From assembly GCA_016186795.1 (NCBI GenBank), contig JACPKY010000002.1, forward strand, positions 90,593 through 154,592: 64,000 nt of DNA, read 5' to 3'. The notes beneath the pieces were generated by a model. That model made no database searches, had not been told where the DNA came from, and saw only the letters and a list, made by a program, of their open reading frames with translations. This stretch comes from Candidatus Gottesmanbacteria bacterium. Its GTDB lineage: Bacteria > Patescibacteriota > Microgenomatia > 2-02-FULL-39-11. This document shows, one piece after another, positions 14,658-57,590 of this stretch. Every line of letters starts with the position of its first letter. Within the stretch, counting starts at the first letter, position 1. Both the position numbers and the translations under genes were made by a program.

Positions 14658-14658
14658 T

Positions 14659-17560: not shown

Positions 17561-17584
17561 ACGTATAACAAGGTATTAATAGTA

Positions 17585-22061: not shown

Positions 22062-22062
22062 G

Positions 22063-23058: not shown

Positions 23059-23065
23059 TAGAGGT

Positions 23066-24896: not shown

Positions 24897-24907
24897 GAGG
24901 AAACTAT

Positions 24908-26873: not shown

Positions 26874-26874
26874 A

Positions 26875-27417
26875 ATGAAAAGTCAAAAGGCCGGCTTTAC
26901 CCTCATTGAACTAATGATTGTTATCACTCTCGTAGGGATTATTGGAACAATCACCACCCAGGTATTTTTGATTAATGTTCGTTCTCAAAACAAAAGCGAG
27001 ATTGTGAAAGAAGTCAAACAAAACGGTGATTACGCCTCTGCAGCAATGGAGATCATGATCAGAAATGCCATCGATGTGCCTTCTTTACAGTGTAATGCGC
27101 AAGCTGCCGATCAGCTAACCATCACGAACCAGGATGGCAATTCGACAACGTTTGACTGTTCTGATGATATTAAAATTGCATCAATAAGTAGCACGTTTCC
27201 CTCTTTGCCTCAGTCATTGACAAGTTCAAAAGTCAAAGTGACGGGTTGCTTTTTCAAAATTATCTGTCCTACTCCCCCACTCTCCCCAAAATATGTCTAT
27301 ATGGGCTTTCGAGTGTGCCAGACAGGAGACGATCCGTGTCCTGGTGGCACAAATTTTTCCGTCGATACCCGGGCGTCGTTGGAATACGAGACAACGGTGA
27401 CACTACGAAATTATTGA
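26875..27417 (+). CDS. pilin/pseudopilin with prepilin-type N-terminus
   Basis: MKSQKAG|FTLIELMIVITLVGIIG carries a prepilin motif with a short leader. Confidence 0.7.
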   Translation: MKSQKAGFTLIELMIVITLVGIIGTITTQVFLINVRSQNKSEIVKEVKQNGDYASAAMEIMIRNAIDVPSLQCNAQAADQLTITNQDGNSTTFDCSDDIKIASISSTFPSLPQSLTSSKVKVTGCFFKIICPTPPLSPKYVYMGFRVCQTGDDPCPGGTNFSVDTRASLEYETTVTLRNY

Positions 27418-33178: not shown

Positions 33179-33191
33179 AATATAATGAGAA

Positions 33192-34193: not shown

Positions 34194-34278
34194 GGTAATT
34201 TAATGTATATTCATTGAATCATCCGAGTCAATATTTGTAAAGAATTACAGTAGTTTCTTACTGTGGTAGGATACGTGT

Positions 34279-36090: not shown

Positions 36091-37454
36091 GAAATATTAG
36101 AGGAAAATATATTCTCCTTGGACTAATCTTTTTCTACCTTGTTCAGCTGTTTGCTCCAAACAAACCTGTTTATTTTTTCTCTTATTTTCTTGCAACAGGG
36201 TTTTTCTTTCTAGATAATCGAGATATTCGGAAAAGTCTTTTTTATAGTTTTATTTTGTCACTTTTTTCTGAAGTTGGACTTGCAGGAAGTTTATTTTTAA
36301 TGGAACCAAGTAAATTGCTTTTGGGATCTGGATGGTGGATATCTCCGATGACGCTCTACATTTTCCTTTTCTTTCTTTTTTCATTTGGCAAGCGAATTCA
36401 AAAAATTATCCTTACTGACTACCTAATTTTCCTATTCTTCCTTTGGAATGTTGTTGTATTTCTTGTTCTCCCCGATCGAAATTCTTTCTTTGGATTTATT
36501 TCCTTGATGGAACAAACTATTGCATATTATCTTTTGCGAGTGAATCTTTCCCGGGATACTCTTCCCGTTATCATTACAGTGGTAGTTTCAGTCCTCATTT
36601 TCCAGACTTTGTTATCTTCTGTCCAAGTACTTTTGCGAAGTCCCGTTGGTCTTCGATCAGAGGCTATACTTGTTGAAAATCCATATGGTCTTACTACAGT
36701 TGAGGAAGAAAATCTTTTTCGCGTCTCCGGTACATATGGACATCCAAATCTTTTTGCTACATTCCTTCTTGCAACAATTCCATTTCTTCTTTTTTCGGCA
36801 AAGTTTTCCTGGTGGAAGATAGTTGCAAGCATATTTACATTCTTAGCTCTTTTTTTTACTTACAGTCGCGGAGCATGGTTTTTTTCTATTCCTCTTATGG
36901 TTACATTTGGTGTCATTCTCTTGAGACAATTTGGTCATGCAATCCGATTACGAATACGGTTTCTCCTCCTGTTTCCGGTATTTGTGATCATATGTGTATT
37001 TCTTGTGTTTCCGGCTTTTATTCTTCGTTTTCGGACAATATCTGACGCATTCGTTGAAGGTGGTTCATTTCAGGTTCGAGAATTGTTGATTCAAGAGGCA
37101 ATCCGGATAATAGGTGCTTATCCACTTACTGGTGTGGGATTGAATCGTTCACTCCAATGGTATGCTAATGATCCTGTGACTGATTTATTTACGATCGTTC
37201 CGATATCTGGATTTTATCGGATTCATAATACACCATTGGAAATTGCGACCGAAACAGGTATTGTCGGATTTATTCTTTTTCTTTTTATTCTTGCCGCTAC
37301 AACGTTTAATTTCTTTTCTTTGAAGCAAGATATTGTGAAGATAGCTGCATTTCTAGGACTTTTCGGTTTCTTAGGGATATCTTTTCTTAACCCATTTTTC
37401 CATGCATCTGTTTTCCGTATATTTTTTTTGCTCATTGCAATTCTTGCATTATAA
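36039..37454 (+). CDS. O-antigen ligase-like (Wzy_C) polytopic membrane protein
   Basis: YSRGAWFFSIPL...RIHNTPLEIATETGIVGFILFLFIL matches the Wzy_C H-N-x2-L-E-x3-E-x-G-x2-G motif. There are about 12 TM helices. Confidence 0.6.
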   Translation: MDAFMFQELAQNLVSSLRNIRGKYILLGLIFFYLVQLFAPNKPVYFFSYFLATGFFFLDNRDIRKSLFYSFILSLFSEVGLAGSLFLMEPSKLLLGSGWWISPMTLYIFLFFLFSFGKRIQKIILTDYLIFLFFLWNVVVFLVLPDRNSFFGFISLMEQTIAYYLLRVNLSRDTLPVIITVVVSVLIFQTLLSSVQVLLRSPVGLRSEAILVENPYGLTTVEEENLFRVSGTYGHPNLFATFLLATIPFLLFSAKFSWWKIVASIFTFLALFFTYSRGAWFFSIPLMVTFGVILLRQFGHAIRLRIRFLLLFPVFVIICVFLVFPAFILRFRTISDAFVEGGSFQVRELLIQEAIRIIGAYPLTGVGLNRSLQWYANDPVTDLFTIVPISGFYRIHNTPLEIATETGIVGFILFLFILAATTFNFFSLKQDIVKIAAFLGLFGFLGISFLNPFFHASVFRIFFLLIAILAL

Positions 37455-37477
37455 GAGTGTTATAATAGCCTCGTTTT

Positions 37478-38674
37478 ATGAAAAAGTGTGTTGCATTAGT
37501 AGTCTATTCTCACTATTCTCGCGATGCTCGAGTTCGACGGTACGGGGAATCACTAGAAAGAAGTGGATATAGCGTTGATGTAATTTCATTAGCTGACTCA
37601 TATGAAGAGAAAAAACTTTCTATTTCCTTTATTCAGTTTCCTCTTCCTCGGATGCGTCTAGGAAAGCTTTGGTACATTGCCGAGTATTTTTTGTTTTTTC
37701 TTTTTACCACATGGAAACTGATGGTAGGACAGATTAAAAAGAACTATCAGTTCATTCATGTAAATAATATGCCAGATTTTCTTGTCTTTGCAGCTTTTGT
37801 TCCAAAACTGTTTGGAGCAAAAATTATCCTTGATATTCATGATCCGATGCCGGAATTGTATATGTCCAAGTATCATGTATCAAAAAATAACTTTGTTGTG
37901 AAGATCTTATGCTACTTGGAACGTATATCTATTCAGTTTTCCGATAGTATTCTTACTGCAAATCCAGTTTTTAAAGAAATTCTTCTCAAAAGAAATGCAG
38001 TGAATGAAAAAAAGATTACTGTGATTCTCAATTGTCCGGATACCAGAATTTTCAGTACAAACAATGCCAGAATAAAAAAACATTCTTCTAAATTTACTCT
38101 TCTTTATATGGGTACTGTGGATGAGCGTTTTGGTCTTGATATTGCCATCGAAGCAATACTTACAATCGTCAAAAGAATTCCAAAGGTGCAGTTTATCATT
38201 ATCCCAAAACTAGAAAGAGAAGGAATGTATTTTTCCGAGTTGAGAAATATGGTAATAGGTTATGGATTATCGAAACAAGTATTATTTTATAAACCACTTC
38301 CTCTTGATAAGATTGCAGAAGCATTGAAGAACGTAGATATTGGAGTGGTTCTTGCAAAAGACGGTATTTTCCCAAATATCATTTTTCCGGTTAAACTTCT
38401 TGAATTTATTCAAATGGGAGTTCCCGTTATTGCGACAAAAACGACAATTCTTTCCCGCTATTTTGATCAGACAATGATATTTTTCCTCAAAGAGAATACA
38501 CCAAAAGAGTTTTCTGATGCAGTATGGAGGTTATATTCAAATGAGAAACTCCGAAAATCACTTGTGAAGAATGCAAAGAAGTATTTTACAAAGCATAATT
38601 GGAATAAAGAAGAGAGTAAATATCACGCTGTTGTTACAAAGTTACTTCATCAAAAAAGCAACAAGGAAAAATAG
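37478..38674 (+). CDS. glycosyltransferase family 1 (GT4, WbuB-like)
   Basis: The N-terminus VALVVYSHYSRDARVRRYGESLERSGYSVDVISL is typical of GT4. A C-terminal GT-B domain is present. Confidence 0.65.
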   Translation: MKKCVALVVYSHYSRDARVRRYGESLERSGYSVDVISLADSYEEKKLSISFIQFPLPRMRLGKLWYIAEYFLFFLFTTWKLMVGQIKKNYQFIHVNNMPDFLVFAAFVPKLFGAKIILDIHDPMPELYMSKYHVSKNNFVVKILCYLERISIQFSDSILTANPVFKEILLKRNAVNEKKITVILNCPDTRIFSTNNARIKKHSSKFTLLYMGTVDERFGLDIAIEAILTIVKRIPKVQFIIIPKLEREGMYFSELRNMVIGYGLSKQVLFYKPLPLDKIAEALKNVDIGVVLAKDGIFPNIIFPVKLLEFIQMGVPVIATKTTILSRYFDQTMIFFLKENTPKEFSDAVWRLYSNEKLRKSLVKNAKKYFTKHNWNKEESKYHAVVTKLLHQKSNKEK

Positions 38675-39748
38675 TCGCTTCGGATGAAGGAAAAAAAGAG
38701 TCTTCCACCACAACGGCTTTTGGATTACTAAAGCAGAAAGAAGGAATGTACGGTAGTTACTTTCCCAGTGAGAATATGACTTTCTACCAGAATGAAGTGG
38801 GACATATCCTATAAATTTCAATGTAAAGAGATGATGCGCAATGTTTATTTCCCATGTTTGTTTGAATATCCTCTTAGGAATACTCATTTGTCCAAATACC
38901 TCTTGAAGTCGATCCGTAATAAGAAGAATGAGTTGGTCTATTTGATAGTCTGATAAGATCCTCAGTACCATTCTCCACTCTTTTTGATTTAATTCTTTTC
39001 CGATAATCCATAGCCGATACAGGTTGTTTAATCCGCGGAATCCATCTTCAAGAGCAAAGATGAGGCAATGGTAGAGATACAAGTACGAAAGTTGAAACCG
39101 GAATGTCCCATCTTTGTCTTTTTTGGCATGGCGCCAGAGTTCTTGTGAAATAATCGATATTTGCTGTTTAGAGAGAAGCGTAAGTTTCGATGGCGGAATG
39201 GTAATAGCAGATGTCCGTACTTCCACTTGAGGTGCACGTAGGTTTCTGAAGTGATTCCATTTTGTTTGTGTATAGTACTCTTGTGGTAAATTTGGCCATC
39301 CTGTAGGTTTTTTTTGGGGCACATATCCTATTTCCCGTAAGAGTGTAGACAGTTTCTTTTCATAATTCGTCTTTACGAGAATATCGATATCAAATTTCAT
39401 AAATTTATTTGCTTCAGAAAAATGTGTTTCATACTCGGAAAAATCTTTTAGGAAAACAATGGGAATACGGTTTTTCCGAACCAAATACTTTAGACGACGT
39501 ACCATTTTCTTATAATGAAAACTTCTGGTTTGCTCATACACGTATAAGGTACGCAGTTTCCCTATCATTTTTGACCGGGACATATCACAACGTGAACAGG
39601 TAAGGTAATGAAAAAGGGTATATGCCATTCTGTTTCTGAATGCTTGGTCGATGAGGGTATCCCAATCATTTTTTTTTTGAGGGAGATATTGACGAAGACT
39701 ACAAGGATGTGTAGATTGGAGGAGTTTAATGAGAAGTTTGTCGTACAT
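38642..39748 (-). CDS. uncharacterised nucleotidyltransferase (NTP_transf_5-like)
   Basis: RIPIVFLKDFSEY...KFMKFDIDILV resembles the LKG...R..DIDLLV core of the PF14907-type uncharacterised nucleotidyltransferase. It is co-directional with DegT, with overlapping stop and start. Confidence 0.5.
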   Translation of the reverse strand: MYDKLLIKLLQSTHPCSLRQYLPQKKNDWDTLIDQAFRNRMAYTLFHYLTCSRCDMSRSKMIGKLRTLYVYEQTRSFHYKKMVRRLKYLVRKNRIPIVFLKDFSEYETHFSEANKFMKFDIDILVKTNYEKKLSTLLREIGYVPQKKPTGWPNLPQEYYTQTKWNHFRNLRAPQVEVRTSAITIPPSKLTLLSKQQISIISQELWRHAKKDKDGTFRFQLSYLYLYHCLIFALEDGFRGLNNLYRLWIIGKELNQKEWRMVLRILSDYQIDQLILLITDRLQEVFGQMSIPKRIFKQTWEINIAHHLFTLKFIGYVPLHSGRKSYSHWESNYRTFLLSALVIQKPLWWKTLFFLHPKRLFFLVAFLMK

Positions 39749-41001
39749 TACCGTCGTGAGATTTCAGATATGCAACGTTTGAGTATTTTTGCAACAAAAT
39801 GAACATCAGAACGTGTAATCTGTGAATACAAAGGAAGGCAGATTATTTTTTTACAGATCTGTTCTGTCACGGGTAGGTGATATTTTTTCTCAGAGAAGGT
39901 CGGTTGGAGATGGATTGGGATTGGATAGTGGATTTGATATTCAATATTTTTCTTTCGTAAAAGCCTTGTGATTTCCCCCCGTTCATTTACCTGAACAGTG
40001 TAGAGCTGGAAGATATGGCTACTATTATTTCTTATGAACGGAGGCACAATCGGAGTATTTTCAAGGAGTTTTGTATAGAGTGATGCGAGCTCTGCACGTT
40101 TTTCATTCCATGCGTCAAGATACTTCAACTTCACACGAAGGATTGCTGCCTGAATGGTATCAAGTTTTGAGTTGACTCCTCTTTCTTTATAGTGATAAGA
40201 ATCAGAGTCATAAAGTGTAGGCTCACCGAACTTTCGAAGCATATCGAATTTTCCCATTGCGTTGTGGGATTTCGACCTGACTTTCCGTGAAATTTTCTCT
40301 AAAGGATTTTCATTTTTATACACAAAGTGCCATGGATACGATAGTATGCGTTGGCCATACTGGCGAAGCGAAAGAATACGTTTTACCACGTCGAAATTAT
40401 TTGTAGTAACTGCTCCTCCGTCTCCGAATGCACCAATATTTTTCCTGGGGCTGAAACTAAAAGCAGCTCCATCACCGAGACTTCCTACCCGTTTTCCTTC
40501 GTACCAAGCTCCATGTGCTTGGCAAGCATCCTCAATGACATAAAGATTGTACTTTTTGGCAACTTGTATAATCGGATTCATATCTGCAGGTTGTCCATAC
40601 AGATGAACAGGGAGGATAGCTTTCGTTCGCTTCGTAATTCGCGACTGTATTTTTGTCGGATCCATGGTATATGTTTCTGGATCAATATCGACAAAAATTG
40701 GAGTAGCACCCGTAAGACTTATTGCATTTGCAGTTGCGATAAACGAGTGAGAAACGGTAATGACTTCGTCCCCTTTTCCAATGTTAAAAGCACGAAGGAG
40801 TAAATAGAGTGCATCGGTTCCAGAGCCGACTCCTACGCAATATTTGGCTTGACAGTAGGAAGCAAATTCCTCCTCAAACTGCGCAACCTCTTTCCCTAAA
40901 ATGAAATTGCACTTATGTACGACGGAAAGGATTGCTCTCTCAATCTCTTTTTGGAATTGTCTGTTTTCTTTTTGCAGATCAACAAATTTCACAGCTCTCA
41001 T
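39748..41001 (-). CDS. DegT/DnrJ/EryC1/StrS-family PLP-dependent sugar aminotransferase
   Basis: [13 protein letters not shown], then [11 protein letters not shown] and [21 protein letters not shown] (a Lys-containing PLP motif), match DegT-family aminotransferases. A roughly 60-aa insertion is present. Confidence 0.8.
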
Positions 41002-41088
41002 GACATTTTACGCACCCGCAGTGTAATGGAAATTGCTATCCTTGTAAAGTCTTTCACCCCATTGATATAATGACTCAAAGAAGATTTC

Positions 41089-42075
41089 ATGTTTGCCCCG
41101 AATATTCTCATAACGAACTTTTGTAATCAGAATTGTAGCTTCTGTTTTGCTAGAGCCGAAATGAACGATTCCATTATCGATCGCGAAATGGAATTGTCGA
41201 ATTTCAAGAGAATTCTTACTGAGATGAAGATGAAACACCATGACATTGATACGGTCAAACTTCTTGGTGGTGAACCATCGCTTCATTCTCGATTTCGCGA
41301 TATCATTGAGCTTTCACTTGCAGCCTTTCCATATGTTCAAATTTTTACTAATGGGATTTTTTCACCAGAGATGATCTTCTTTCTCCAAACGAAGGTTCCG
41401 CGAGTAAAGTTTACTTTCAATGTCATGACTCCGGGATTTCAGTTGAACCAGAAAGTCCATAAAAAGGTTACAGAGGCAATACAAATATTTGCGCCTCTCA
41501 CAGAAGTGACACTTTCTTTGACCTTTGATATGCATACCGATATCAGCCGTGCGTTGAATACAGTTGGTGATGAGACGCTTCGAATCGTAAAGAGTTTCCG
41601 ATTAGGTTTTTCCAATCCAATTGCAGGTGAGAGAAATTATTATCAATTTGAGGATTTTCCCAAAGTTGGTGAGCAACTGTACCGTATTATGAAAAAGATA
41701 CGTGGACTTGGGTCAACTGCCACATGCTCTCTCAATTGCGGGTTTACAAGGTGCATGTTTACTGATTCACAGTATGAATTCTTGAAAAAAAGTGGAGTTG
41801 AAATTATGGGATTTGGCTGTTTTGGCAAAGCAAGTAGTGTTGATATAGGGACTGACATGCGTGCGTTCCATTGTTTCCCTTTATCAACAAAAGACAAAAA
41901 GTCCATCAACAATACAGACATCTCAAATGTAGATCAGGATTTTTTGAAAAAGCGCTACGAATACTGGTCGAAAATACGGCTCTCAGTGTGCGTGAAGTGT
42001 CCGTTCTACGGGCATACTCCAGATAAATGTCCTGGTCCATGCATTGCATTTCGTATGAATAGTCCACATGGCTAA
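41089..42075 (+). CDS. radical SAM enzyme with C-terminal SPASM/twitch-like Cys cluster (paralog 1)
   Basis: The N-terminal CNQNCSFC (CxxxCxxC) and the LLGGEPSL SAM motif are present. The C-terminal cysteines are CSLNC...C...C...CVKCPFYG...CPGPC. Confidence 0.8.
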   Translation: MFAPNILITNFCNQNCSFCFARAEMNDSIIDREMELSNFKRILTEMKMKHHDIDTVKLLGGEPSLHSRFRDIIELSLAAFPYVQIFTNGIFSPEMIFFLQTKVPRVKFTFNVMTPGFQLNQKVHKKVTEAIQIFAPLTEVTLSLTFDMHTDISRALNTVGDETLRIVKSFRLGFSNPIAGERNYYQFEDFPKVGEQLYRIMKKIRGLGSTATCSLNCGFTRCMFTDSQYEFLKKSGVEIMGFGCFGKASSVDIGTDMRAFHCFPLSTKDKKSINNTDISNVDQDFLKKRYEYWSKIRLSVCVKCPFYGHTPDKCPGPCIAFRMNSPHG

Positions 42076-43051
42076 GAAAGCACCGTTTGCATTTCCATCA
42101 CTTGCCTACCTGAAAAAGGTTTTTCCTACTTTTCCACTTCTTCGCGGAGATCCGAGCCTGAAGGTTTTACACAAAAAAAACTTTGAGGATAATTTTACAT
42201 TGAAAAAGTTTTCCGATATATTTACAAGATATCGGCAAACACCTTTTACGATGCCTTCCCCAAACAAGGCCGTCATTCTTCTCTGTTCAGGTGGAATCGA
42301 TTCAGTTGTTCTTTGGGAAATTCTTCTAAGAAAGTATAAACTAAAAGTATTTCCGCTGCGCCATACCACACCCAAAAAGCAGGAAGAAAAGGCTTTTCAA
42401 TTTTTCCTTGAGTATTTTCGCAAGAAATATCCCAAACAGTGTCAAGACGTCTTCACCTTTGGCCATGAATTTCTCTTTTCGTTCCAGAAAGAGACATACC
42501 ATCTTTTTGAAAAAGACCAGAAGATGCGGATTCCTAATCTGAGTATCCATGATGGTAAACAGACAGTGGCATTTACTATTCCAATTACACGGCTTGGAGT
42601 ATATGCGTTGAAAGCCTATGAATACGCGCTATATTTGAGGTCGTATGCCAATGTGGATGTTCAAACCGCATTTGTCGCCATCACTCCTGAAGATTCTGCC
42701 TACTATCGGGAGGCAACCCTCACGGTTTTACGGTCGTTCAATCTATCTATTTGTACACTTTTAGGAGATTACCGCTTTCAGTTTACCTCGCCCTACCTGG
42801 AAAAGAGTTTTCCGTTCAAGACGAAACTGGATATTATTTCCTTTGCGAAAAAAACCGGACTTCCACTCGAGATGACGTGGAGTTGTACAGATGATCTACC
42901 ATCTCAATGTGGAGAGTGTTTTTCCTGTTTACTTCGGAAGCGGATTTTTGACATTAGTGGCATTAAAGATAAAACAACGTATGGAAGGAAAGGATTCTGG
43001 ATTTCTCAGGCGGGGAAGAAATTTATCGGAAGGATTCAATCTTCAAAGTGA
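42068..43051 (+). CDS. QueC-like PP-loop ATP pyrophosphatase
   Basis: CSGGIDSVVLWEIL is an SGGxDS PP-loop. The C-terminal C...CGECFSCLLR is a Zn motif like that of QueC (7-cyano-7-deazaguanine synthase). It has about 60 aa of extra N-terminus relative to QueC. Confidence 0.6.
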   Translation: MAKKAPFAFPSLAYLKKVFPTFPLLRGDPSLKVLHKKNFEDNFTLKKFSDIFTRYRQTPFTMPSPNKAVILLCSGGIDSVVLWEILLRKYKLKVFPLRHTTPKKQEEKAFQFFLEYFRKKYPKQCQDVFTFGHEFLFSFQKETYHLFEKDQKMRIPNLSIHDGKQTVAFTIPITRLGVYALKAYEYALYLRSYANVDVQTAFVAITPEDSAYYREATLTVLRSFNLSICTLLGDYRFQFTSPYLEKSFPFKTKLDIISFAKKTGLPLEMTWSCTDDLPSQCGECFSCLLRKRIFDISGIKDKTTYGRKGFWISQAGKKFIGRIQSSK

Positions 43052-43270
43052 ATCTTGACATGTTTCTCATATCTATTACAATGAATTTATTATTCACTAT
43101 TATTTGTGTTACGGAAGTTTTACAACTTCGAAGTCATGAAAAAGGCGCGAAAAACGCACAAACGAGCATACGCAAAGCCAGCTGGTAAGCGCTTGTCAAA
43201 AAGCGTGAAGACCGCATACATGGCGATGGAACATCATTTACCATAAAAAAGGTCGCTTACATTTACTCCA

Positions 43271-44338
43271 GTGTCAGCCATAGATTTACTTCTTACGGAT
43301 TTTTGCAACCAAAGTTGTCCCTTCTGTTTTGCCAGAAAAGAAATGGAATCCCCACTCAAAAAGTATATGACGTGGGAAGATTATCTTTTTATTACGGACG
43401 TATTGAAAAAAAACGAAATTTTTACCCTAAATCTACTTGGTGGTGAGCCGACAATCCATCCCTTTTTTCCCAAAATAATAAAGCATGCCCTGAAAAATTT
43501 TTTTAGTATCATGATTTATACAAACGGTATATTTCCTCCAAAGGTAACAGAAACTTTACGATCTCTCAATACTTCACGAATCAAAATCACATTTAATATA
43601 AGTACCCCAGGATTTATATCAAATCCCAAAATTCGAGATGCAGTCCTTGCAAACATTGAAGAGTTTGCTCCGAAAACTGAAGTCACGCTTGCCATCACTG
43701 ATGTTTTTCAGTCGCAAACGTTTGCTCAGTCGATTTTCTCCCACGTGAATGATTCGCTTCTCAAAAAGGTATATGCTCGGTTGGGATTTGCTTCTCCAAT
43801 TGCGGGTGAGGCAAATTACGTGACGCTTGATGATTTTCCAAACGTCGGAGAAAACTTTTGTGCAATTATAACCGATCTCGACCGGCGAGGTCCTCCAAAA
43901 GGGTATAAAGCTAACACAAGTCTTACTCCCTGTATGTTTAACGAGAAAGAGCGGCAATTTCTTGAAAATCACGAAGTGCGTCTTCACTCAGATTGTCATC
44001 TGGAGATCAATGACCGATGGTTTACTATTACCTCTGATCTTTCAACATTTAAGTGTTACCCACTTTCAATGAGGGAGAGGGGTAAAATTACAAAAAGCAA
44101 CGATTTACCGGCAATTCGAGACGCGTATACTGTGTTGCAGGAAAAATACCGTTCTGAATGGGTGTTACCAAAATGCAAAACGTGTCCATTCTATGGAATA
44201 GGAAAAGGGAAATGTTCAGGTCCTTGTTTGGCATTTCGCTATAATGCTTTAAAGCAGATGAAGAAAATCCCTATTGCAAACGAGGGCGACTTTGTAAAAG
44301 ATAACCCTTCTTTATTCCTTCAGTTACAAAATCAGTAA
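43271..44338 (+). CDS. radical SAM enzyme with C-terminal SPASM/twitch-like Cys cluster (paralog 2)
   Basis: CNQSCPFC and LLGGEPTI are present. Conserved IAGE.NY..DFP.VGE blocks are shared with the 41089 protein. The C-terminal cysteines are CKTCPFYG...CSGPC. Confidence 0.8.
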   Translation: MSAIDLLLTDFCNQSCPFCFARKEMESPLKKYMTWEDYLFITDVLKKNEIFTLNLLGGEPTIHPFFPKIIKHALKNFFSIMIYTNGIFPPKVTETLRSLNTSRIKITFNISTPGFISNPKIRDAVLANIEEFAPKTEVTLAITDVFQSQTFAQSIFSHVNDSLLKKVYARLGFASPIAGEANYVTLDDFPNVGENFCAIITDLDRRGPPKGYKANTSLTPCMFNEKERQFLENHEVRLHSDCHLEINDRWFTITSDLSTFKCYPLSMRERGKITKSNDLPAIRDAYTVLQEKYRSEWVLPKCKTCPFYGIGKGKCSGPCLAFRYNALKQMKKIPIANEGDFVKDNPSLFLQLQNQ

Positions 44339-44585
44339 CATCCTCCCTCGCTTGATGCACAGAGATACCATAAACGTCCTCACATTTGCGGATAAGTGCA
44401 CTAAGAGGTCTTGGTTTCCAAAGATACTTCCATAGCATCTCCGCGCTTTCGTTGAGTGAATACCAGATGTCATTATCAAAATCAACAACAAGGAGGCATT
44501 CTTTTGTTTTTCTTACAAATGTTTTTGAATTTCGACTAATTACAGCGTTATCATGCATTACCATTTTCGTATCAATATAGTACAA
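44271..44585 (-). CDS. PqqD-like (RiPP recognition element-like) small protein
   Basis: LLVVDFDNDIWYSLNESAEMLWKYL...IRKCEDVYGISVHQAREDVTDFVTEGIKKGYL follows the PqqD pattern (beta-strand, x-y-x-LN-eta-a, helix, DV..F). It overlaps the 3' end of the rSAM gene convergently. Its start abuts the HprK-like start, so the true start may be an internal Met. Confidence 0.4.
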   Translation of the reverse strand: MYYIDTKMVMHDNAVISRNSKTFVRKTKECLLVVDFDNDIWYSLNESAEMLWKYLWKPRPLSALIRKCEDVYGISVHQAREDVTDFVTEGIKKGYLLQSRPRLQ

Positions 44586-45361
44586 TGCAGCATATCAAGT
44601 ATGCAAGAAGAAATCTTCCCATGCTAGAGTGTAGTGTGAATTTAGGTATTCGGATACTGAATGTACATTTTGAAACTGAAAAGTTTTATTTTGCTTTTGA
44701 GAAAATATTTCTCTGTACCCCTCCCGTAAAAAATCCGTGGTTTTCCATTTTCATCCGAAAAAGTAAAAAAATACAGAGTAATATCGATATTTCAAAAAAA
44801 CTCGCCGAATTATACTATTGCAACAATAAAGCTTTTCCGTTTACGAAAGCTGTAACTTCTTTCTTCTCATATCTTCTTTACACGCAAGACGTACTCGTTT
44901 TTCATGCTTCATCCGTTGTCAAAAATGACGGAGCAGTTCTTTTCTGTGGAGAACAGGGAGTTGGGAAAACAACTGTATCGGTGATGAGCGGTTTGCCGCG
45001 GTATTCCGATGACGCAGCATTTATAAGGAAATCCGGAAATACATTTCTCCTTTACCCTACACCGTTTGAAACAAGCAAAATATACGCTCGTCTCAGGAAA
45101 CCATTGAAAATCCGCTGTCTGTATTTTCTCCACCAAGGGTCAAGAAATATCGTGAATCGCATGCATCCGTATGAGAGTGTCATTTATGCATCAAGGAATT
45201 TATTTAGTAATTTTCTGAATGTTTCGAATCAAGCGGTACAGAAAGCATGTTATACTTTACTATCTGATTTTGTAGGGAATGTTCCTATGAGACAGCTATA
45301 TTTTAATCGAGATATTGGGTTTCTACAGTCACTTCTTGAGAAGAATGAAGGTAAAATATGA
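44585..45361 (+). CDS. HPr kinase C-terminal domain-like P-loop protein
   Basis: AVLFCGEQGVGKTTVSVMSGLPRYSDDAAFI matches the HprK C-domain G-x-S/G-G-x-GKS/T...DD block. There is no N-terminal HprK domain. Confidence 0.6.
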   Translation: MQHIKYARRNLPMLECSVNLGIRILNVHFETEKFYFAFEKIFLCTPPVKNPWFSIFIRKSKKIQSNIDISKKLAELYYCNNKAFPFTKAVTSFFSYLLYTQDVLVFHASSVVKNDGAVLFCGEQGVGKTTVSVMSGLPRYSDDAAFIRKSGNTFLLYPTPFETSKIYARLRKPLKIRCLYFLHQGSRNIVNRMHPYESVIYASRNLFSNFLNVSNQAVQKACYTLLSDFVGNVPMRQLYFNRDIGFLQSLLEKNEGKI

Positions 45362-45645
45362 GGAAAAAAATGTATAAAAGAAAACCTAACACTCTCTTCC
45401 GTCAAATTGGAAACGAATTCATATTTATTGACTACGGGGAGAGCCGATTTTATTCCCTCAACATAGTTGCATCACGTATCCTACAAATGCTTGGTTCTCC
45501 TAAAGATGTTTACCAAATTTCCGAACGGGTGTCGTTGGAATTTGAAGTTCCATACAAAAAACTTCTTCAAGATATACGAAGCTTTTTGCAGGTGGCTGTT
45601 AAACGGGGTTTGGTGAAAGAAGTTTTTATTACCGAATCCGAGTAA
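45358..45645 (+). CDS. PqqD-like (RiPP recognition element-like) small protein
   Basis: The 95-aa protein reads LFRQIGNEFIFIDYGESRFYSLNIVASRILQML...DIRSFLQVAVKRGLV. A 4-nt overlap (ATGA) with the HprK-like gene suggests translational coupling. Confidence 0.6.
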   Translation: MRKKMYKRKPNTLFRQIGNEFIFIDYGESRFYSLNIVASRILQMLGSPKDVYQISERVSLEFEVPYKKLLQDIRSFLQVAVKRGLVKEVFITESE

Positions 45646-47267: not shown

Positions 47268-47717
47268 TCAAAAAAGTGCAAGTCGAAGAAGTATTTTTCT
47301 CCCCCGAAGTATTTTTGTCATCACTCTTCTGAACCATGCTGGTCCTACAGAAGTGCAGATTGAATAAAAGAAAAAATACCACTTAATATATTTGAAATAC
47401 AAAGAAGAAAGTTTGAGGGTGCCGTACTTTCCATCAATTCGCTCAAGAATTCCCACGATATGTTCATGGGTGATCGGGGGGTCGCGATACGGAGTATTAT
47501 CTCCTTTTGTTTGAAGGTACTTACCGTAAATCTTTAGTATTCTATGCCCGATAAGGTGACTATCTTGATAGTACACCACAATATCTGCAAGATTAAAATT
47601 CTTCCGTGACGGTTTAACGAAGAGTTTATCCCCCGCATTCATCAATGGTGCCATACTCTCCCCGCTTGCTTTTCCAATATAGAGTGCGTTTGTATGGTGT
47701 TTTATCTTTTCTTCCAT
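47268..47717 (-). CDS. signal peptidase I, SipW/archaeal-type (S26B)
   Basis: GESMAPLM carries the Ser nucleophile in an SM motif. IGHRIL has His as general base, as in SipW/ER-type peptidases. GDNTPYRDP is a GDNN..D box, and ADIVVY is present. Confidence 0.65.
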   Translation of the reverse strand: MEEKIKHHTNALYIGKASGESMAPLMNAGDKLFVKPSRKNFNLADIVVYYQDSHLIGHRILKIYGKYLQTKGDNTPYRDPPITHEHIVGILERIDGKYGTLKLSSLYFKYIKWYFFFYSICTSVGPAWFRRVMTKILRGRKILLRLALF

Positions 47718-49620: not shown

Positions 49621-52600
49621 ATGTCGCTTGCTAAAATTTTTGCGGCTCTTATTTTCGTATGGATTGCTTTTTCGACCCTTGATATTTTCACCCCCGATAA
49701 AAACTGGTTTAGCCAATCTGCTTCTGCTCAATATTGTACATCAACTTCGCTTCAGTCACCTCCCGATATTGGATATTCAACAAGTTATGCCCAGCAAACA
49801 ATTCTGAATGGTATGAATACCGGAGATGATGCTGCCTCTATAGGAAGTAAAAATATGAATGGATATTATCCAACGGCTTGGCAGGTTCCACGAGATATAC
49901 AAGTAATCATGGTTCGGGCAAATATCACACCAGATATCGATGGACTAGATATTTATGACGGTATTCCAACCACATTTTATATAAAAGCCAATAACGCGCT
50001 TGATGCACGTGCGTATGCATATAGAATAAATTCAATACCTCTTGGGGTTCAGCATGCGATTCGAACTCACTGGGACGGTAACGCTTCATACTGTGCTTCT
50101 ACATCGACTCAGTGGTCGTATTTTACCCGGTTTAACCCTGGGTATCACCAGAGTTGCACCGCTTGGAGCGCGTGTAGTAACTCTTGTGGTACTGGTACAC
50201 AGACCAGGACCTGTTCATGCTATCGAGATACCGACAATGGCCAAGTTGACAACTCTTGGTGTGGAGACCCTTCCGAATCCCAATCATGTACGGATTACTC
50301 CGGTTGTGGTCCTTGCACGGTTTCAAACCAATCCCCAACATCTGGTTGTTTTGACTATGACCCTACTTATAGTTTGAGTATGGGTGGAGTTGGTGCAAGT
50401 CGTGCACAATTTCATATAGACACATCCAGTCCTCCTAATTCTCCATATACATGTGATAGCGGAATAACGACATCTTCCACCTATAATTGCTCACTGGCAA
50501 CAGGAAGTTATCGGTGGAATGCAGAAGTATCATCAATTCAAGGATGTACAGATTCTGGATTTTTACCATCAGCAGGATATGCCTATAGTATTGATAAAAC
50601 AGCTCCTCCAGTCCCTTCTGGACTGAATATTGTTTGTAATCCCAATGGTACTGTTACAGCTAGCTGGAATGCTGTGAGTGACACAGGGTGCGGTGGAATG
50701 TCCACCACCCCTTACTGGTCTCAGATCTCTACGAGTGCTACTTTTTCGTCAGTTCCTGATTGGTATAACAGCTGGATAAATGAAACCTCAAGAACAAGCT
50801 CGACAACCTTTGCACCAGGAACCACAGTCTATGCGCATGTAAGAAGCCGGGATTCATTGGATAATCAGTCTTCCTGGAGTGCAAATGATTCGTGTACGTT
50901 TCCATTACCTACCAATACCCCAACGCCAACCCGAACCCCAACTCCAACTCCAACGAGAACGCCGACTCCGACACTACCTCCATGCTCACTATCAAACCAA
51001 CTCCCCCTCTCTGGTTGTTATGGCACAGATCCTACATATTCCGCCACTCTCGGAGGTGGTGCCAATAGAATCCAATTCCATGTAGATACAAGTTCTCCTC
51101 CGAATAGTCCGTATATCTGTGATAGTGGGGTCACTGCATCAACTTCATATTCCTGTACATTAGGAACAGGTACGTACTATTGGAATGCGCAAGCAAGTTC
51201 CTCTACAGGATCGTGTACAACCTCTGCCTATGTTCCTGTAAATGGCTACTCAGTAAGTGTTGATAAAATAGCACCAATTATTCCTCTCCCGAATATTGTA
51301 TGTAACACGAATGGGACAGTAAGTGTTTCCTGGGGGGCAGTAAGCGATGCAGGCTGTGGAGGGATGTCTTCTACTCCCTATTGGTCTCAAATTTCCACCG
51401 ATCCCGCTTTTGGGACAGTTCCAGACTGGTATAATAGTTGGATCAATGAGACGTCACGTACTAGTACAACGACATTTGCAGCTGGAACGATAGTCTATGC
51501 GCATGTAAGAAGCCGAGATATCTTTGATAATCAATCACCATGGAGCCCAAATGATAATTGTACTTTTCCTACACCTACTCCAACTCGAACTCCAACACCG
51601 ACCCCCACCCGGACACCTACTCCTACTGCTACCAGAACTCCAACTCCAACACCACTTGTCGGCTGTTGGGGAGCATGTACCGGTGACGCACAGTGTGCTT
51701 CTGGGAACTGTGATCCCTTCCTCCTCCAATGTACCGGCGGATCATGTCCAACGGCAACACCAACGATTACGCCGACTCGTACTCCTACTCCAACACCTAC
51801 AAGGACACCAACACCTACTGCTACCAGAACTCCAACACCAACTCCCACAAGAACTCCAACTCCGACACCTTTAATCCAATGTTTGGGGTCTTGTACTGCT
51901 GACGAAGAGTGTGCCTCGGGCAATTGCGACCCCTTCTATCTCCAATGTACCTCCGGTCCAGGAGGACCATGTCCGACATTTACGCCTTCCCCTACTAATA
52001 CTCCCACTCCCACCCCAACCCGGACACCAACCCCTACTCCTACCCGAACTCCGACACCAACGCCAACTGCAACTAGAACACCAACGCCAACACCGACAAT
52101 TACTCCAACACCAACTCCAACATCTGTTGCATGTTGGGGTGCCTGTACAGGAGATGCCCAGTGTGCATCCGGAAACTGCGACCCGTTCCTTTTGCAATGT
52201 ACCGGTGGGTCATGTCCAACGGCAACACCGACAATTACTCCAACGAGAACACCAACGCCAACTGCAACCAGAACACCAACGCCAACTGCAACCAGAACCC
52301 CAACGCCAACGAATACACCGACCCCAACGAATACTCCAACTCCAACGCCGGCTGCTTGTAACGACAGCTGTACCGGAAATGAACAATGTTTATCAGAATA
52401 TTGCTATCCATTTACTCTGTCGTGTAGAAATATTAGTTGTCCTGATAATACAAACTGTATTTGTGGACCAACACCCACAGCTACCCCCACGAATACGCCG
52501 ATACCAACAAATACACCAACGCCGACAGTTACTCCAACCCCAGGATTTGGGCAGTGCAGTGGTGCGTGCACTTCCGATGTCGATTGTTCGGGCTCAACCG

Positions 52601-53748
52601 GTTATTGTTACCCTTTTTATCTTCTTTGTAGAAATGTAAGCTGTCCAGAAAATGCTTCGTGCGACTGTTCACAACTTCAGCCAAGTGCAACTCCGACGCC
52701 AACCATTACACCTTCCGTTACACCAGGCGGGCCAACATTAACGCCAACTCCCCCCTTAACGCCAACACCAACGATTCAGGCCGGAATGTGTAACGCAACG
52801 TGTTCATCAGATTTAGAATGTGCTCCTTCAACAAACTATTGTGATCCTTACATTCTTCAGTGCAGAAATGCGTTATGTAGTGCCGATATTGACTGTGACT
52901 GTGCAACAGCAAACCCAACGATTACTCCAACATCTCCTCCTGGTGCAACGGCGACGCCATCTCCTACTCGTACACCGACTCCAACAGCATCGACTACTCC
53001 TGCGCCTGATGCATGGACGCAAGTTCTCGGAGGAGATGTAAGTTTTTCCTCCCTTACAGAAACAATTCCTCATAACGAGTACTTTCTTGATGAGATTCCT
53101 AATGCACCGAACAGCTCTGGAATTATTTTTGGAAACGATGTGACATTTACGTATGATTCCCAAACGGAAAATACGGCTTCTCCAGATCGCTGGATCGTAA
53201 AGACAAGTACAACTTTGACGAATTCGTATTCATATGACTATTATTACGAACTTTTAAAAGGACAAGCGGTAAATAGTTCAGGAACCGTTGTCGGGAGTGG
53301 GTTGGCATTTGATAAAAACATCTATTATTATTCTGATGCTTCTGGAGCGTTTACCCTTGATTCGAATTTGGAAAATGGAATTCTGGGAGGATCAGTCCAA
53401 GCTGTCGTTTTTCTCATTGACGGTTCTCTTACCATAGACCAATCGTTTGCTCCAAATCCTTCAAGCAAAACTCCAGTATTTATTGTTCGGGATACTATTA
53501 CAGTCAGTGGCAACATTGGTACTCTCTCAGGTATCTATATTTCGGGTGGAGCATTTACCGTTGCGGATGGGTCGGCGACACGTTTTATTCTCAATGGTAT
53601 GGTATATGCGAACGATCTTATTCTGCAAAAGACCTATCAGAGTTTGACTCTTCCAGCACACCAGTTTATTTATCAACCGAAATATATTCTTGATCTTCTC
53701 CCCTATCTTGGGCGAGCACAAGTGAACTGGCAGGAGGTAACACCATGA
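49621..53748 (+). CDS. giant secreted Cys-rich tandem-module surface protein
   Basis: An N-terminal signal peptide is present. A TSP1-like motif reads [19 protein letters not shown]. Two roughly 230-aa paralogous domains (..SPPNSPY.CDSG..) are followed by six 6-Cys modules ([23 protein letters not shown]..CP) separated by (PT)n/TPTPTRTP linkers. The C-terminal domain is about 250 aa. Confidence 0.8.
50905..52990 (+). repeat. intragenic low-complexity Pro/Thr-linker repeats (ACN-CCN) interleaved with repeated Cys-module coding units
   Basis: ccaac(N)ccgac(N)cc runs recur directly at least 8 times. These repeats create the many spurious overlapping ORFs seen in other frames. Confidence 0.85.
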
Positions 53749-54608
53749 AAAAAATTCAATCCGCCAGCTGGCGGACAAAATTCAGAATTCAAAAAGGACA
53801 GGTAGTACTTCTCCTTGTCCTTATAACTGTTATTGGACTCACTATTGGATTATCTCTTATTTCTCGAACTGTAACAGACGTTCGAATTTCTTCACAAATT
53901 GAGCAATCAGGACGGGCTTTTTCCGCAGCGGAAGCGGGTATTGAGAGCGCTCTTCGGTCTGGAACATCCAACGTGACCAGCGGTAATGTATCACTTCCAG
54001 GCGCATCGGCATCGTATAGTGTTTCCCCTGTGAGTGTTTCGGCAGCAACTTCTTACCACCTTCCTTTGACAGCTACTGGAAAATCGCAGACGTTATGGTT
54101 GATGGCACACGATGACGCAACAGGAGCGCTTGATGAATCGAATTATTACGATTTTACAAATGGTATTGACGTTTGTTGGGGCAGCGATTCTTCAACCGTT
54201 CCTGCCCTTCTTGTAACACTTTTTTATAAAGATAGCACAGGAGACTATTCAATCGCAAAAGCGGCATTTGATGCAAATGCATCAACGCGAGGTAATGGAT
54301 TTTCTCCATTGAGTCTTAACGAAATCCCTCCAGGTACTTACTGCCAAGGGGGCTATTCATACCGTAAATCATTGACATATTCGGCGTTTGGTTTATCAGG
54401 GAGTCTCAAAGCAATTGCTCTTCGGATGAAACCATGGTACGCCGATACGAAGATAGGAGTTTTACCGGGAGCATCCCTTCCCACTCAAGGGAATGTGATA
54501 ACATCATTAGGACAATCAGAAACAGGTGTAGTGAGAAAGATTCAAGTTATCCAGGGATACTCAGCGTTACCGGAAGTGTTTGATTTTTCCTATTTTTCGG
54601 AAAACTAG
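53745..54608 (+). CDS. PilX_N-like type IV pilus assembly protein
   Basis: [29 protein letters not shown]...[22 protein letters not shown] matches the PilX N-terminal pattern (basic residues, TM, then ..A..AAEAG). Its start overlaps the stop of the giant gene (ATGA). Confidence 0.5.
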
Positions 54609-55255: not shown

Positions 55256-56296
55256 GTGCAAGTTCTGCCCATGCATAAAGTTCTTCTTGGACTTGATATT
55301 GGAACAAATTCAATTAAAGCAGTTCAGATTGCTAGAGAAAAAAGCGGGAAACACCTTCTTGCAGCTGGATATATAGCCACCTCTGCCAAAGCTCTCGCAT
55401 CTCTCACAACCGGCGATGAGCAGGAATTGGCAAGTACGATTAATCGCCTCGTTCATGACATGAAAATTTCAACGGAGGATGTTTCCGCCTCTCTCCCCTC
55501 TTCAAAAGTCATAACCCGGGTGATTGAAGTGCCCATGATGAAAGACGAAGAACTTACCTCGAGTATTCAATGGGAAGCAGAGCAGTATATTCCCTTGCCA
55601 CTTTCAAGCGTAAAACTTGATTATGCTGTTATCGGTAATAATACAGAAAATACCAAGATGAAAATCCTGCTTGTCGCAGCTCCTATTACCATCATTGAAA
55701 AATACATGCGGGTTATTACACTTGCAGGACTCAATCCGGTTGCGCTTGAAACAGAAATTCTTGCCTCATCAAGATGTATTGTCGAAAGCTATCAAACGCT
55801 TGAAAACGTTTTAATTCTTTCATTCGGTGCGACATCCTCCGAAATTGCTTTGACGTATAATAGAACACTTATTTACGCACGGTCACTCCCTATTGGCGGA
55901 AATACTTTGACGAAAGCCATAACAGAAGAGTTGGGATTTGAAATAGCTCAAGCTGAAGAATATAAAAAAACGTATGGGTTAGAAGAGGATAAGCTGGAAG
56001 GGAAAGTATACAAGACGCTTGAACCATTTTTTAAATCGGTGTTAACTGAGATTGAGAAGACTCTTGCATATTTTAAAGAGCAGTACCCGAAAGACGAGAT
56101 TAAATCAGTTATTGCGTGCGGGGGAGGGGCAAAGCTTCCTGGTCTTGTTCTTGCAATAACGAAAAATTTCGGTATTGATTCGCAATTGTGCAATCCTTTT
56201 TTAAATCTTTCCGTTGATCCGAATATTTTACCAATTCTAACTCCGGATATGTCCATGTACACCGTTGCTGTTGGGTTGGGTTTGAAAGAGGATTGA
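55256..56296 (+). CDS. pilM: type IV pilus assembly protein PilM (actin-like ATPase fold)
   Basis: LLGLDIGTNSIKAVQIA is phosphate-1 of the ASKHA fold. The protein is 346 aa and is followed by PilN/PilO-like genes with 4-nt overlaps. Confidence 0.8.
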   Translation: MQVLPMHKVLLGLDIGTNSIKAVQIAREKSGKHLLAAGYIATSAKALASLTTGDEQELASTINRLVHDMKISTEDVSASLPSSKVITRVIEVPMMKDEELTSSIQWEAEQYIPLPLSSVKLDYAVIGNNTENTKMKILLVAAPITIIEKYMRVITLAGLNPVALETEILASSRCIVESYQTLENVLILSFGATSSEIALTYNRTLIYARSLPIGGNTLTKAITEELGFEIAQAEEYKKTYGLEEDKLEGKVYKTLEPFFKSVLTEIEKTLAYFKEQYPKDEIKSVIACGGGAKLPGLVLAITKNFGIDSQLCNPFLNLSVDPNILPILTPDMSMYTVAVGLGLKED

Positions 56297-56859
56297 TCTT
56301 TATGGCAAAGCGATCTGTCAACCTTATAATCTCGAAAAGGGATTTTTCCGAAACAGCAGAAAAATTGAAGCGAATTACGACAATTACCGCAGGCATAAGT
56401 ATTGTCCTTTTTCTACTTCTTTTTGCTCTCTCAGTATGGTATGTCCGAACAAATACCGATAAATTTACCCAAATGAAACAAGAGTTAGACCAGGTTGAGA
56501 AAAAAGTCGCAGCCAAGAAACAAGCTGAAGGACTGTATGTTTTGACATCGCAACGACTTTCTGTATTGGAGAAATTACTTGCACAAACGAGTCCGTACGA
56601 CGGGCTTATCGGCAATATTGCCGGACTTTCGACAGAAGGAATATCGATAACTTCCGTCACTGCCGATAGTCGAGGGAACTTGTCAATTTCAATTCTCGCA
56701 TCCTCCTCTGCCTCTCTTGATGCTTTTATTACGTCTTTACTATACGCTGAGCAAGAAAAAAGGCTATCAAAGATTTTTGCCCAAGGGATTCTTCGACACG
56801 AAGAAGGTGATTATTCCCTAACACTTTTGTTTCATGGTGAGAAAAATTTATACCAATGA
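56293..56859 (+). CDS. pilN: PilN-like pilus assembly protein
   Basis: It has one TM after a basic N-terminus, then a coiled coil. The call rests on position after pilM and on bitopic topology. Confidence 0.5.
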   Translation: MIFMAKRSVNLIISKRDFSETAEKLKRITTITAGISIVLFLLLFALSVWYVRTNTDKFTQMKQELDQVEKKVAAKKQAEGLYVLTSQRLSVLEKLLAQTSPYDGLIGNIAGLSTEGISITSVTADSRGNLSISILASSSASLDAFITSLLYAEQEKRLSKIFAQGILRHEEGDYSLTLLFHGEKNLYQ

Positions 56860-57590
56860 GTAAACGGAATCAGATTACAAAATACATCAAATTTTACGAA
56901 GTGACGATCGCTTCCACTATTGTCATTCTGATGGTTATACTCTCAGCATATTTTTTCCTTCTTCCCAATCTGTGGCATGCTACGTTTATTTATGATCAGC
57001 AAAAACATGTCACCGAAAAACTTACAGTTGTCCGGCAGAAAGACTCGCAACTTTCAAATCTGGATGTCGACGTATACAAGAATGCTCTGTTACAGTTAGG
57101 AAAGGTACTGCCAGAATCGCGAGATTACGTCTCGTTTTTTACGACATTTGATTCGCTTGAAAAGTCAACCGGTGTACAGATTACAAAAACCGATTTCCAG
57201 TTAGGACTTTTGTCTACTCAATCTGGGAGGCTTTCCAAGCCCCTTAACGCCCCTGCGTATATCATTCCTATCACAATGGAAGTCGCAGGTACCCAACAGT
57301 CACTTCCCCTCTTTTTTTCCCAATTGCAAGGGTTAACTGGGCGACTCATAAATATTTTGGGGGTACGATGGAATATCAAACAAGATGAGGAAGAGATGCA
57401 CGTCGTCATAAACGGAGAAGCATATTTCTATCCGCTTCCAAGCCAACTCGGAGGAGTCGATGTTCCTTTGCCGAAGCTAACAAAGCAGCAGGAAGAGTTT
57501 TTGATTACTGCTTCGGAGTTACGAAGTGAGGATAGGACCCAAGACGACGATTTTTCTACAATAGAGGTTGGAATTAAGAGTCTTTTCTAG
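56856..57590 (+). CDS. pilO: PilO-like pilus assembly protein
   Basis: It has one N-terminal TM followed by a soluble domain. The call rests on position after pilN. Confidence 0.4.
   Translation: MSKRNQITKYIKFYEVTIASTIVILMVILSAYFFLLPNLWHATFIYDQQKHVTEKLTVVRQKDSQLSNLDVDVYKNALLQLGKVLPESRDYVSFFTTFDSLEKSTGVQITKTDFQLGLLSTQSGRLSKPLNAPAYIIPITMEVAGTQQSLPLFFSQLQGLTGRLINILGVRWNIKQDEEEMHVVINGEAYFYPLPSQLGGVDVPLPKLTKQQEEFLITASELRSEDRTQDDDFSTIEVGIKSLF

Follow-up and report, generated by a model that had tools for sequence, protein, structure and literature searches.

We studied a window of 64,000 nucleotides (nt) from the genome of a Candidatus Gottesmanbacteria bacterium, which belongs to the candidate phyla radiation (CPR), located on a 1.12-Mb contig; all positions given here are those of this window. 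Our subject is a gene encoding a modular surface protein of 1375 amino acids (aa), together with the pilin-like gene whose start codon overlaps its stop codon and the type IV pilus genes found in the same window. The features of the two coupled genes are the following:

49621-53748 (+): modular surface-protein gene, 1375 aa, with a passenger region and a C-terminal solenoid domain (list of open reading frames, ORFs; identical DNA in three Logan assemblies)
49621-49731 (+): hydrophobic N-terminus, aa 1-37 (...SASAQ); the G↓FTLIE motif is absent, unlike in the pilins of the window
49732-50154 (+): N-terminal domain, aa 38-178; relatives undetected, with Pfam, NCBIfam and a word-indexed search all empty
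50155-50313 (+): thrombospondin type 1-like (TSP1) repeat, aa 179-231; PF19030, 33.4 bits
50314-50901 (+): domain A1, aa 232-427, 69% identical to A2
50983-51567 (+): domain A2, aa 455-649, paralogue of A1 by alignment
51664-51795 (+): module M1 (6 Cys) and a 16-aa Pro/Thr (PT) linker; peptide equal to that of M3 in 44/44 aa
51880-51972 (+): module M2 (6 Cys), 75% identical to M1 and M3 by alignment
52132-52263 (+): module M3 (6 Cys) and PT linker; peptide equal to that of M1
52357-52902 (+): modules M4, M5 and M6 (52357-52464, 52555-52668 and 52789-52902; 8 Cys each) and PT linkers, from the cysteine map and alignment
53008-53745 (+): C-terminal domain (CTD), aa 1130-1375, 246 aa; predicted ComZ-like or ice-binding-protein-like beta-solenoid with a conserved W-x-E-V-x-P tail
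53732-53748 (+): coupling junction, AGGAGGT (within the W-Q-E-V codons), 6-nt spacer and ATGA; junctions of this type also in the related loci L004 and L006-L012
53745-54608 (+): PilX_N-like gene, 287 aa, GspK/PilX-class pilin-like protein without Glu5; PF14341, 21.8 bits

The hydrophobic N-terminus of the large protein has the features of a Sec-type signal peptide or a membrane anchor and not those of a prepilin signal. No match to N_methyl or PilX_N, nor to the PilY1/PilC families, was found for this protein in Pfam. Neither Pfam nor NCBIfam gave a match for the domain at aa 38-178, and a word-indexed search using the passenger region of aa 38-427 as query retrieved no orthologues. The TSP1 repeat matched PF19030 (TSP1_ADAMTS) above the gathering cut-off of 23.8, both in the whole protein (25.3 bits) and as an isolated segment (33.4 bits, E 5.6e-8), and contains the WSxCSxxCGxGxxxR motif. 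It is a bona fide TSP1 repeat in a CPR bacterium and the sole TSP1 match among the 55 members of the CTD family that were scanned. Domains A1 and A2 comprise about 195 aa each with a period of 223 aa (69% identity, pS 0.71, dN 0.27), and have weak relatives in four members of that family (P0016, P0017, P0019 and P0051). Maps of Cys and of Pro/Thr residues revealed six small modules strung on PT linkers, of which M1-M3 have 6 Cys each and M4-M6 have 8 Cys each; an 8-Cys module resembling M4-M6 is carried by family member P0133. A search of JGI metagenomes with the module motif found no relatives, and a sequence search of the modules against the PDB gave no significant match. A first-pass annotation of this DNA had described a 1375-aa protein with a signal peptide and a TSP1-like motif, which agrees with our data. 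It had also proposed two paralogous domains of roughly 230 aa and six 6-Cys modules on PT linkers; the paralogy, the six modules and their linkers were recovered, but the domains are shorter and only the first three modules have 6 Cys.

The coupled partner gene and the C-terminal domain

The stop of the large gene and the start of its partner overlap as ATGA at 53745-53748, as the first-pass annotation had noticed, and AGGAGGT lies six nt upstream. The partner protein (NCBI MBI2616853.1) is deposited as a hypothetical protein. Its PilX_N (PF14341) score of 21.8 bits lies under the gathering score of 25.5, so that the likeness to PilX_N claimed in that annotation holds at a sub-threshold level. 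Seven of 12 partner homologues matched PilX_N and nothing else, with a best E of 1.6e-4. The partner family shows an invariant G18-Q19 followed by a hydrophobic helix without Glu5, and shares the motif RAFSAAEAG; in the partner of the window (..KG↓QVVLLLVL..) position +5 is Leu. The other pilins of the window start with G↓FT(L/M)IE and have Glu5, and the minor pilin at 26403 has G↓QTILE. Absence of Glu5 is a mark of the GspK/PilX cap class (bioRxiv 10.64898/2026.02.12.705559). No significant match to the partner was obtained in a sequence search of the PDB.

The CTD gene is followed by a coupled PilX_N-like gene in 8/9 related loci (L004 and L006-L012), where the partners are 43-48% identical, and in five of these eight pilM-N-O come directly after, as in the window. 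The junctions are of the types ATGA, GTGA, TAATG and TTGATG. In L008-L012 Wzy_C is again followed by the CTD protein, its partner, pilM-N-O and trmD, and the order in Gottesmanbacteria can be written as signal-peptidase-like, Wzy_C/TPR, CTD protein, PilX_N-like, (small membrane protein), pilM, pilN, pilO and a convergent trmD. The protein of locus L004 is at least 979 aa long and has different Cys modules, PT linkers and the same CTD; the PilX_N-like gene there is 46% identical, and its start codon overlaps the stop of the CTD gene. A minimal form of 467 aa, made of a signal, a PT linker, one Cys module and the CTD, was found in L005. Two pairs of CTD and partner genes occur in one genome (L007 and L008), their CTDs being 41% and their partners 43% identical; this equal divergence suggests that both genes were duplicated together. 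The order of CTD gene, PilX_N-like gene and pilMNO holds across Candidatus Gottesmanbacteria, and only loosely in distant branches.

Word-indexed searches with the CTD gave few relatives, and a scan of species-representative genomes yielded eight CTD loci, seven of them in Candidatus Gottesmanbacteria. In an exhaustive profile search, 8,436 cluster representatives matched with E <= 1e-3, and 4,122 matched with E <= 1e-10. Among the best 150 matches the domain lay at the extreme C-terminus in nearly all, in proteins of 110-1,470 aa, and most of the best matches terminated in W-[KRQ]-E-[VI]-x-P. The passenger regions of the family are variable and include CARDB, LamG, fn3, PA14, PKD, dockerin, SdrD_B and Hint domains. 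A few members carry Hint, PT-HINT or Vint domains in their passengers, which suggests self-cleaving or intein-like modules. No curated family of Pfam or NCBIfam matched the CTD of the window, and no significant match was found in a sequence search of the PDB. Ice_binding (PF11999, DUF3494) did not match it either, and matched 1/30 family members at E 0.012. DUF7305 (PF23981) gave no match to the window's CTD and weak matches to the solenoid core in 8/30 family CTDs (best E 5e-7); in one member examined closely it scored 21.2 bits against a 27-bit cut-off, over residues 104-173. In the literature library searched, no paper mentioned DUF7305. In contrast to DUF3494/IBP-1 and DUF7305, the CTD family has a W-x-E-V-A-P terminus and an N-terminal W-x-Q-x-x-G-D-V sub-domain.

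A confident model of the CTD was obtained from an alignment of 30 sequences (mean pLDDT 87.6, pTM 0.87), whereas an earlier one from eight sequences was too poor for use (pLDDT 47.7). The predicted fold, a beta-solenoid flanked by a helix, is of the triangular type seen in ice-binding proteins, and its top structural match was ComZ of Thermus thermophilus (PDB 6qvi), at a sequence identity of 12%. Conservation in the family is strongest within the last 30 residues, which include ..YQPKY..LLPYLGR..W-x-E-V-x-P, and over this tail the confidence of the model falls to 73 and then to 55. A tail that is conserved yet modelled at low confidence fits the pattern typical of a partner-binding segment that becomes ordered on binding. 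We also considered that W-x-E-V-x-P might be kept merely as the ribosome-binding site of the partner gene. This was ruled out because distant members end in TAA or TAG and are followed by unrelated downstream genes; conservation of the tail where no coupled partner exists points to a constraint at the protein level.

Several members of the family depart from the common arrangement. The CTD is split in L009 (131-409; 1728-4526) and L010 (8698-8973; 9062-10339), where its first 95 residues or so close an upstream ORF and only the second half is carried by a new gene, which has a signal peptide and a passenger region of its own; in L011 (9242-9520; 10001-10456) an insert of about 160 aa divides the two halves. 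These split CTDs look like cassette insertions at a sub-domain boundary. The member encoded at locus L013 (CAYMIE010000003.1) has 1373 aa, PA14-like repeats and an identity of 25%, and its gene is not followed by a PilX_N-like partner. Its metagenome-assembled genome is labelled 'uncultured Gammaproteobacteria', so either the family extends outside the CPR or the contig was mis-binned. The small, distant members P0006 (301 aa) and P0007 (336 aa), from L058 (478-3155) and L059 (1004-3666), consist of an N-terminal hydrophobic helix and the solenoid. They lie directly downstream of larger genes, overlapping or abutting them, and one of these larger genes carries Peptidase_S74, a tail-spike chaperone domain.

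Identical peptides in modules M1 and M3

Modules M1 and M3 with their linkers have the same sequence over 44 aa (aa 682-725 and 838-881; nt 51664-51795 and 52132-52263), and 59/61 residues are identical in the extended alignment. The corresponding DNA differs at 28/132 nt (21% of bases), every change being synonymous. As a result 26/44 codons differ although the peptide, including 16 linker residues, is identical, and the longest run shared by both copies measures about 20 nt. That the linker residues are identical is explained only partly by the low complexity of PT sequence, and the repeat as a whole far exceeds a chance origin. Identical codons numbered 18/44, compared with 17.5±3.0 in random draws from the codon usage of the gene; the DNA of both copies is therefore similar only as imposed by the peptide, and no more different than chance. 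M1 and M2 show 75% protein identity. Domains A1 and A2 are equally saturated at synonymous sites (pS 0.71) and only 69% identical as proteins. A recent duplication looks otherwise: in the internal repeat of the L013 protein, 92% identical in amino acids, 139/153 codons were identical versus 54 expected.

The M1/M3 repeat is best explained as an old internal duplicate pair on which purifying selection has been very strong. If dS is taken to be at least 2, the lack of any change at about 98 non-synonymous sites calls for an omega at or below about 0.015, roughly tenfold under that of the other repeats. Because no module-bearing orthologues were found, saturation is the measure by which the pair is judged to be old. 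The first-pass annotation had pointed to a common 46-aa peptide with synonymous differences and had proposed strong purifying selection, or else selection against recombination between the repeats. The identity, the synonymous nature of all differences and purifying selection agree with our results, the peptide being 44 aa long; the proposed selection against recombination does not. Active recoding against homologous recombination or slippage in a recent duplicate pair would account for so many codon differences under an identical peptide, linker residues included, and the common run of about 20 nt is under typical recombination thresholds. Such recoding should nevertheless leave fewer identical codons than random draws do, and it did not. 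The whole gene is moreover richer in repeated k-mers than its synonymous-codon shuffles (62 versus 9.4±6.5 at k=15), and its longest exact repeat measures 29 nt versus 18.6±3.2 in the shuffles, which indicates that DNA repeats are not generally purged and are tolerated in the linkers. The PT linkers, indeed, still bear recent slippage or duplication. A1 and A2 also reached the same synonymous saturation, with ordinary protein divergence. We regard recoding as very improbable.

Three independent Logan assemblies from separate sequencing runs agreed with 0 mismatches over the gene and as much as 10 kb of upstream sequence. The possibility raised with the first-pass annotation, that the module copies were created by the assembly, was thus ruled out as far as the data allow, as the copies also differ by 21% and the longest repeat is 29 nt; the scrambled codons of the identical modules explain how this repeat-rich gene could be assembled from short reads. 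The three Logan contigs (L001-L003) all end 34-36 nt past the stop of the gene, within the first part of the partner gene (window 53749-53784) and immediately beyond a 14-nt palindrome, CCGCCAGCTGGCGG. These shared ends could stem from a graph break or from strain differences in the partner gene. As it stands, the M1/M3 pair would be a clean natural case of a small disulfide module under extreme purifying selection.

Pilus genes and neighbourhood

The genes that surround the coupled pair, and the remaining pilus genes of the window, are these:

47268-47717 (-): SipW/archaeal-type signal peptidase I-like protein, 149 aa, GESMAP motif; Peptidase_S24, E 1.8e-7; syntenic in L008 and L010
47780-49570 (+): Wzy_C (O-antigen-ligase-like) and TPR membrane protein, immediately upstream of the 1375-aa gene; PF04932, E 1.2e-15; syntenic in L008, L010 and L011
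54672-55079 (+): small membrane protein, 135 aa, poorly conserved, in the gap between the partner gene and pilM; relative only in L012
55256-57590 (+): pilM (55256-56296; PilM_2, E 9e-56), pilN-like (56293-56859) and pilO (56856-57590; PilO, E 4e-4)
12957-27417 (+): pilB, pilT, pilC and the major pilin gene (12957-17560), pilD and seven prepilin-like genes (23066-27417); Pfam T2SSE, T2SSF, N_methyl and Peptidase_A24, and G↓FT(L/M)IE N-termini

The pilus genes among these make up a complete set for a type IV pilus, and no other such set is present in the window. Genes for PilM, PilN and PilO follow the partner gene in a row, in accordance with the position just upstream of pilMNO that had been reported for the large gene; the PilO match at E 4e-4 is below the cut-off, and PilN was assigned by position and synteny only. 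The signal-peptidase-like protein matched TIGR02228 below the cut-off (E 1.2e-10), and this SipW-like peptidase may be dedicated to the processing of the 1375-aa protein. Beyond Wzy_C, the Wzy_C protein showed only a weak RfaL match. A second Wzy_C membrane protein is encoded at 17585-19465 (-), directly after the major pilin gene. The two Wzy_C proteins may be O-oligosaccharyltransferases of the PglL/TfpO type, and would be candidates to modify the pilin and the PT linkers.

Other observations concern the rest of the window. A 746-aa protein without family assignment is encoded at 27604-29844 (+), directly after the seven prepilin-like genes, and gave only a weak match resembling a twin-arginine signal at residues 102-125; it may likewise be associated with the pilus. 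A low-GC island (0.29-0.36 versus about 0.41 elsewhere) lies at about 30000-40000, between the two halves of the pilus set. At about 41000-45400 (L001 1541-6025), upstream of the 1375-aa gene, there is a cluster of QueC-like, radical SAM and two small PqqD-like genes which resembles a peptide-modification (RiPP-like) cluster. No RNA families of Rfam were found within the window.

Possible role at the pilus tip and alternatives

Proteins of the PilY1/PilC type, from the fimU-pilVWXY1E operon of Proteobacteria, are large non-pilins encoded beside pilX; docking on the minor-pilin complex is ascribed to their conserved C-terminal domain, and their variable N-terminal part serves for adhesion. The 1375-aa protein is likewise a large non-pilin encoded beside a pilX-class gene in a pilus locus. 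The C-terminal domain of PilY1 is a beta-propeller with a calcium site, whereas the CTD described here is a predicted beta-solenoid and no propeller. A closer parallel in fold is ComZ, a tip pilin of the competence pilus, which has a GspK-like domain with an inserted ice-binding-protein-like solenoid and binds the minor pilin PilA2 with a Kd of 0.69 µM (PMC6561018). In ComZ the solenoid stands inside the pilin fold of a single polypeptide that has no long passenger region. In the Gottesmanbacteria locus it forms the end of a separate, putatively Sec-exported 1375-aa protein having such a region, and the pilin-like part is encoded by the next gene. Cyanobacterial PilX proteins all contain a solenoid and have been proposed to form a PilY1-like tip plug or adhesin (bioRxiv 10.64898/2026.02.12.705559). 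They combine, as here, a cap pilin without Glu5 and an ice-binding-protein-like solenoid, and some carry extra domains of undefined function. Each of them is nevertheless one polypeptide, in which the solenoid is placed between the last two strands, and they show neither PT-linked arrays nor two-gene coupling. Host binding in Saccharibacteria, which also belong to the CPR, is mediated by large PilX proteins that carry accessory domains, and requires PilX2 (PMC11623550). Saccharibacterial PilX1 and PilX2 share with our system the CPR origin, a large PilX-type protein with no PilD signal and accessory binding domains; these are jelly-roll or beta-propeller domains fused to the pilin, with no solenoid reported and no separate passenger protein. 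The system is best described as a two-gene variant of the pilus tip of ComZ and solenoid-bearing PilX, built on a large and essentially unannotated CTD family.

The 1375-aa protein is most likely an exchangeable adhesin at the type IV pilus tip. Circumstantial support for this comes from synteny and fold, the conserved stop/start overlap, the duplication of the pair, the partner without Glu5, the full pilus set, the conserved tail and the adhesin-type passengers. Exported through its N-terminal Sec-type signal, and possibly processed by the SipW-like peptidase, the protein would display a long, probably O-glycosylated PT-linked string composed of the TSP1 repeat, two Ig-like paralogous domains and six disulfide modules. 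Glycosylation of the PT linkers, or of the pilin, could be performed by the Wzy_C-type enzymes encoded upstream and beside the major pilin. The constant solenoid, particularly its conserved C-terminal tail, would dock on the cap-class pilin-like product of the coupled gene; both proteins together would prime the assembly of the pilus at the PilMNO platform and finally occupy the pilus tip, where the variable passenger region would act as an adhesin. We place moderate confidence in this picture of a tip adhesin on a coupled cap pilin, taken together with an old M1/M3 duplication under strong purifying selection.

Several observations weigh against a place at the tip. The large protein is not a pilin, and its only hydrophobic helix, at the Sec-type N-terminus, is 1,100 residues away from the solenoid, which does not lie within a pilin fold as in ComZ and PilX. 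The assignment of the partner to PilX_N falls short of Pfam's cut-off, and in L005 a convergent gene lies downstream in place of the partner. The solenoid fold also occurs in many surface proteins unrelated to pili, such as ice-binding proteins and other adhesins, and the 746-aa protein at 27604-29844 could be an alternative tip protein. In the distant branch of the CTD family, sampled as 44 metagenome loci of which 22 had at least 3 kb of flank, the CTD genes mostly stand alone among unrelated neighbours; a PilX_N-like gene and PilM were found within a few kb in only 3/22 loci and never coupled, although the partner profile is lineage-specific and divergent partners may be missed in this count. 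The tight operon link is therefore a feature of the clade. These distant members would suit a generic cell-surface adhesin, whose solenoid serves as a binding domain or as an anchor to the envelope (wall, S-layer or membrane protein) and whose proximity to pilus genes reflects co-regulation or shared glycosylation. The N-terminus is possibly an uncleaved membrane anchor, and the conserved upstream neighbours are a Wzy_C-like enzyme and a signal-peptidase-like gene, both in line with such a role. However, a stop/start overlap with an embedded ribosome-binding site conserved in 8/9 related loci, the duplication of CTD and partner as a unit in one genome, a pilus-tip protein as best structural match and a partner of the cap pilin class without Glu5 argue against it, and we consider a generic adhesin rather unlikely. 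The first-pass annotation had preferred a pilus-associated tip adhesin and had asked that homologues be linked to pilus genes. The link is borne out by the coupled partner in eight of the nine related loci, by pilM-N-O in five of them and by the ComZ-like CTD, and fades in the distant branch; the role at the tip stays circumstantial.

CPR bacteria depend on the uptake of external nucleotides or DNA, and the pilus could instead serve competence, with the solenoid and the PilX-like pilin binding extracellular DNA at the tip and the passenger region acting as a spacer or secondary adhesin. It would agree with this that the window contains only one type IV pilus gene set, that the closest structural match is ComZ, a DNA-binding tip pilin (PMC6561018), and that a report on Saccharibacteria describes them as naturally competent (PMC10187176). 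Yet sequence identity to ComZ is only 12%, and the lysines of ComZ that contact DNA are located between its pilin domain and its solenoid (PMC6561018), a geometry absent from the two-chain form. Hypervariable adhesin-type passengers, in turn, suggest varied cell-surface or glycan targets and not DNA. A DNA receptor is, in our opinion, a poor candidate.

Returning to the tip adhesin, a broader form of the proposal makes the CTD a universal plug-in for the pilus tip of the CPR, in which the tail would complete the fold of the pilin lacking Glu5 by strand addition, as a ComZ-type cap split in two genes. We regard this extension as speculative and rather unlikely. If true, thousands of different passengers could be mounted on one pilus tip and exchanged by linker recombination, and these episymbionts would have in this family, with its more than 8,000 clusters, a main repertoire for host recognition.

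Little is known of the way in which ultrasmall, uncultured CPR bacteria locate their hosts and stay attached to them; type IV pili are the best candidate organelle, so far tested only in Saccharibacteria. The locus described here extends the theme of ComZ and cyanobacterial PilX, a cap pilin with an ice-binding-like solenoid, to a two-gene form. The CTD defines a very large family without an adequate curated model and is a possible marker for candidate adhesins across CPR genomes. The locus suggests a testable design for attachment, in which a constant solenoid "plug" and its cap pilin would carry an exchangeable array of linker-separated binding modules.

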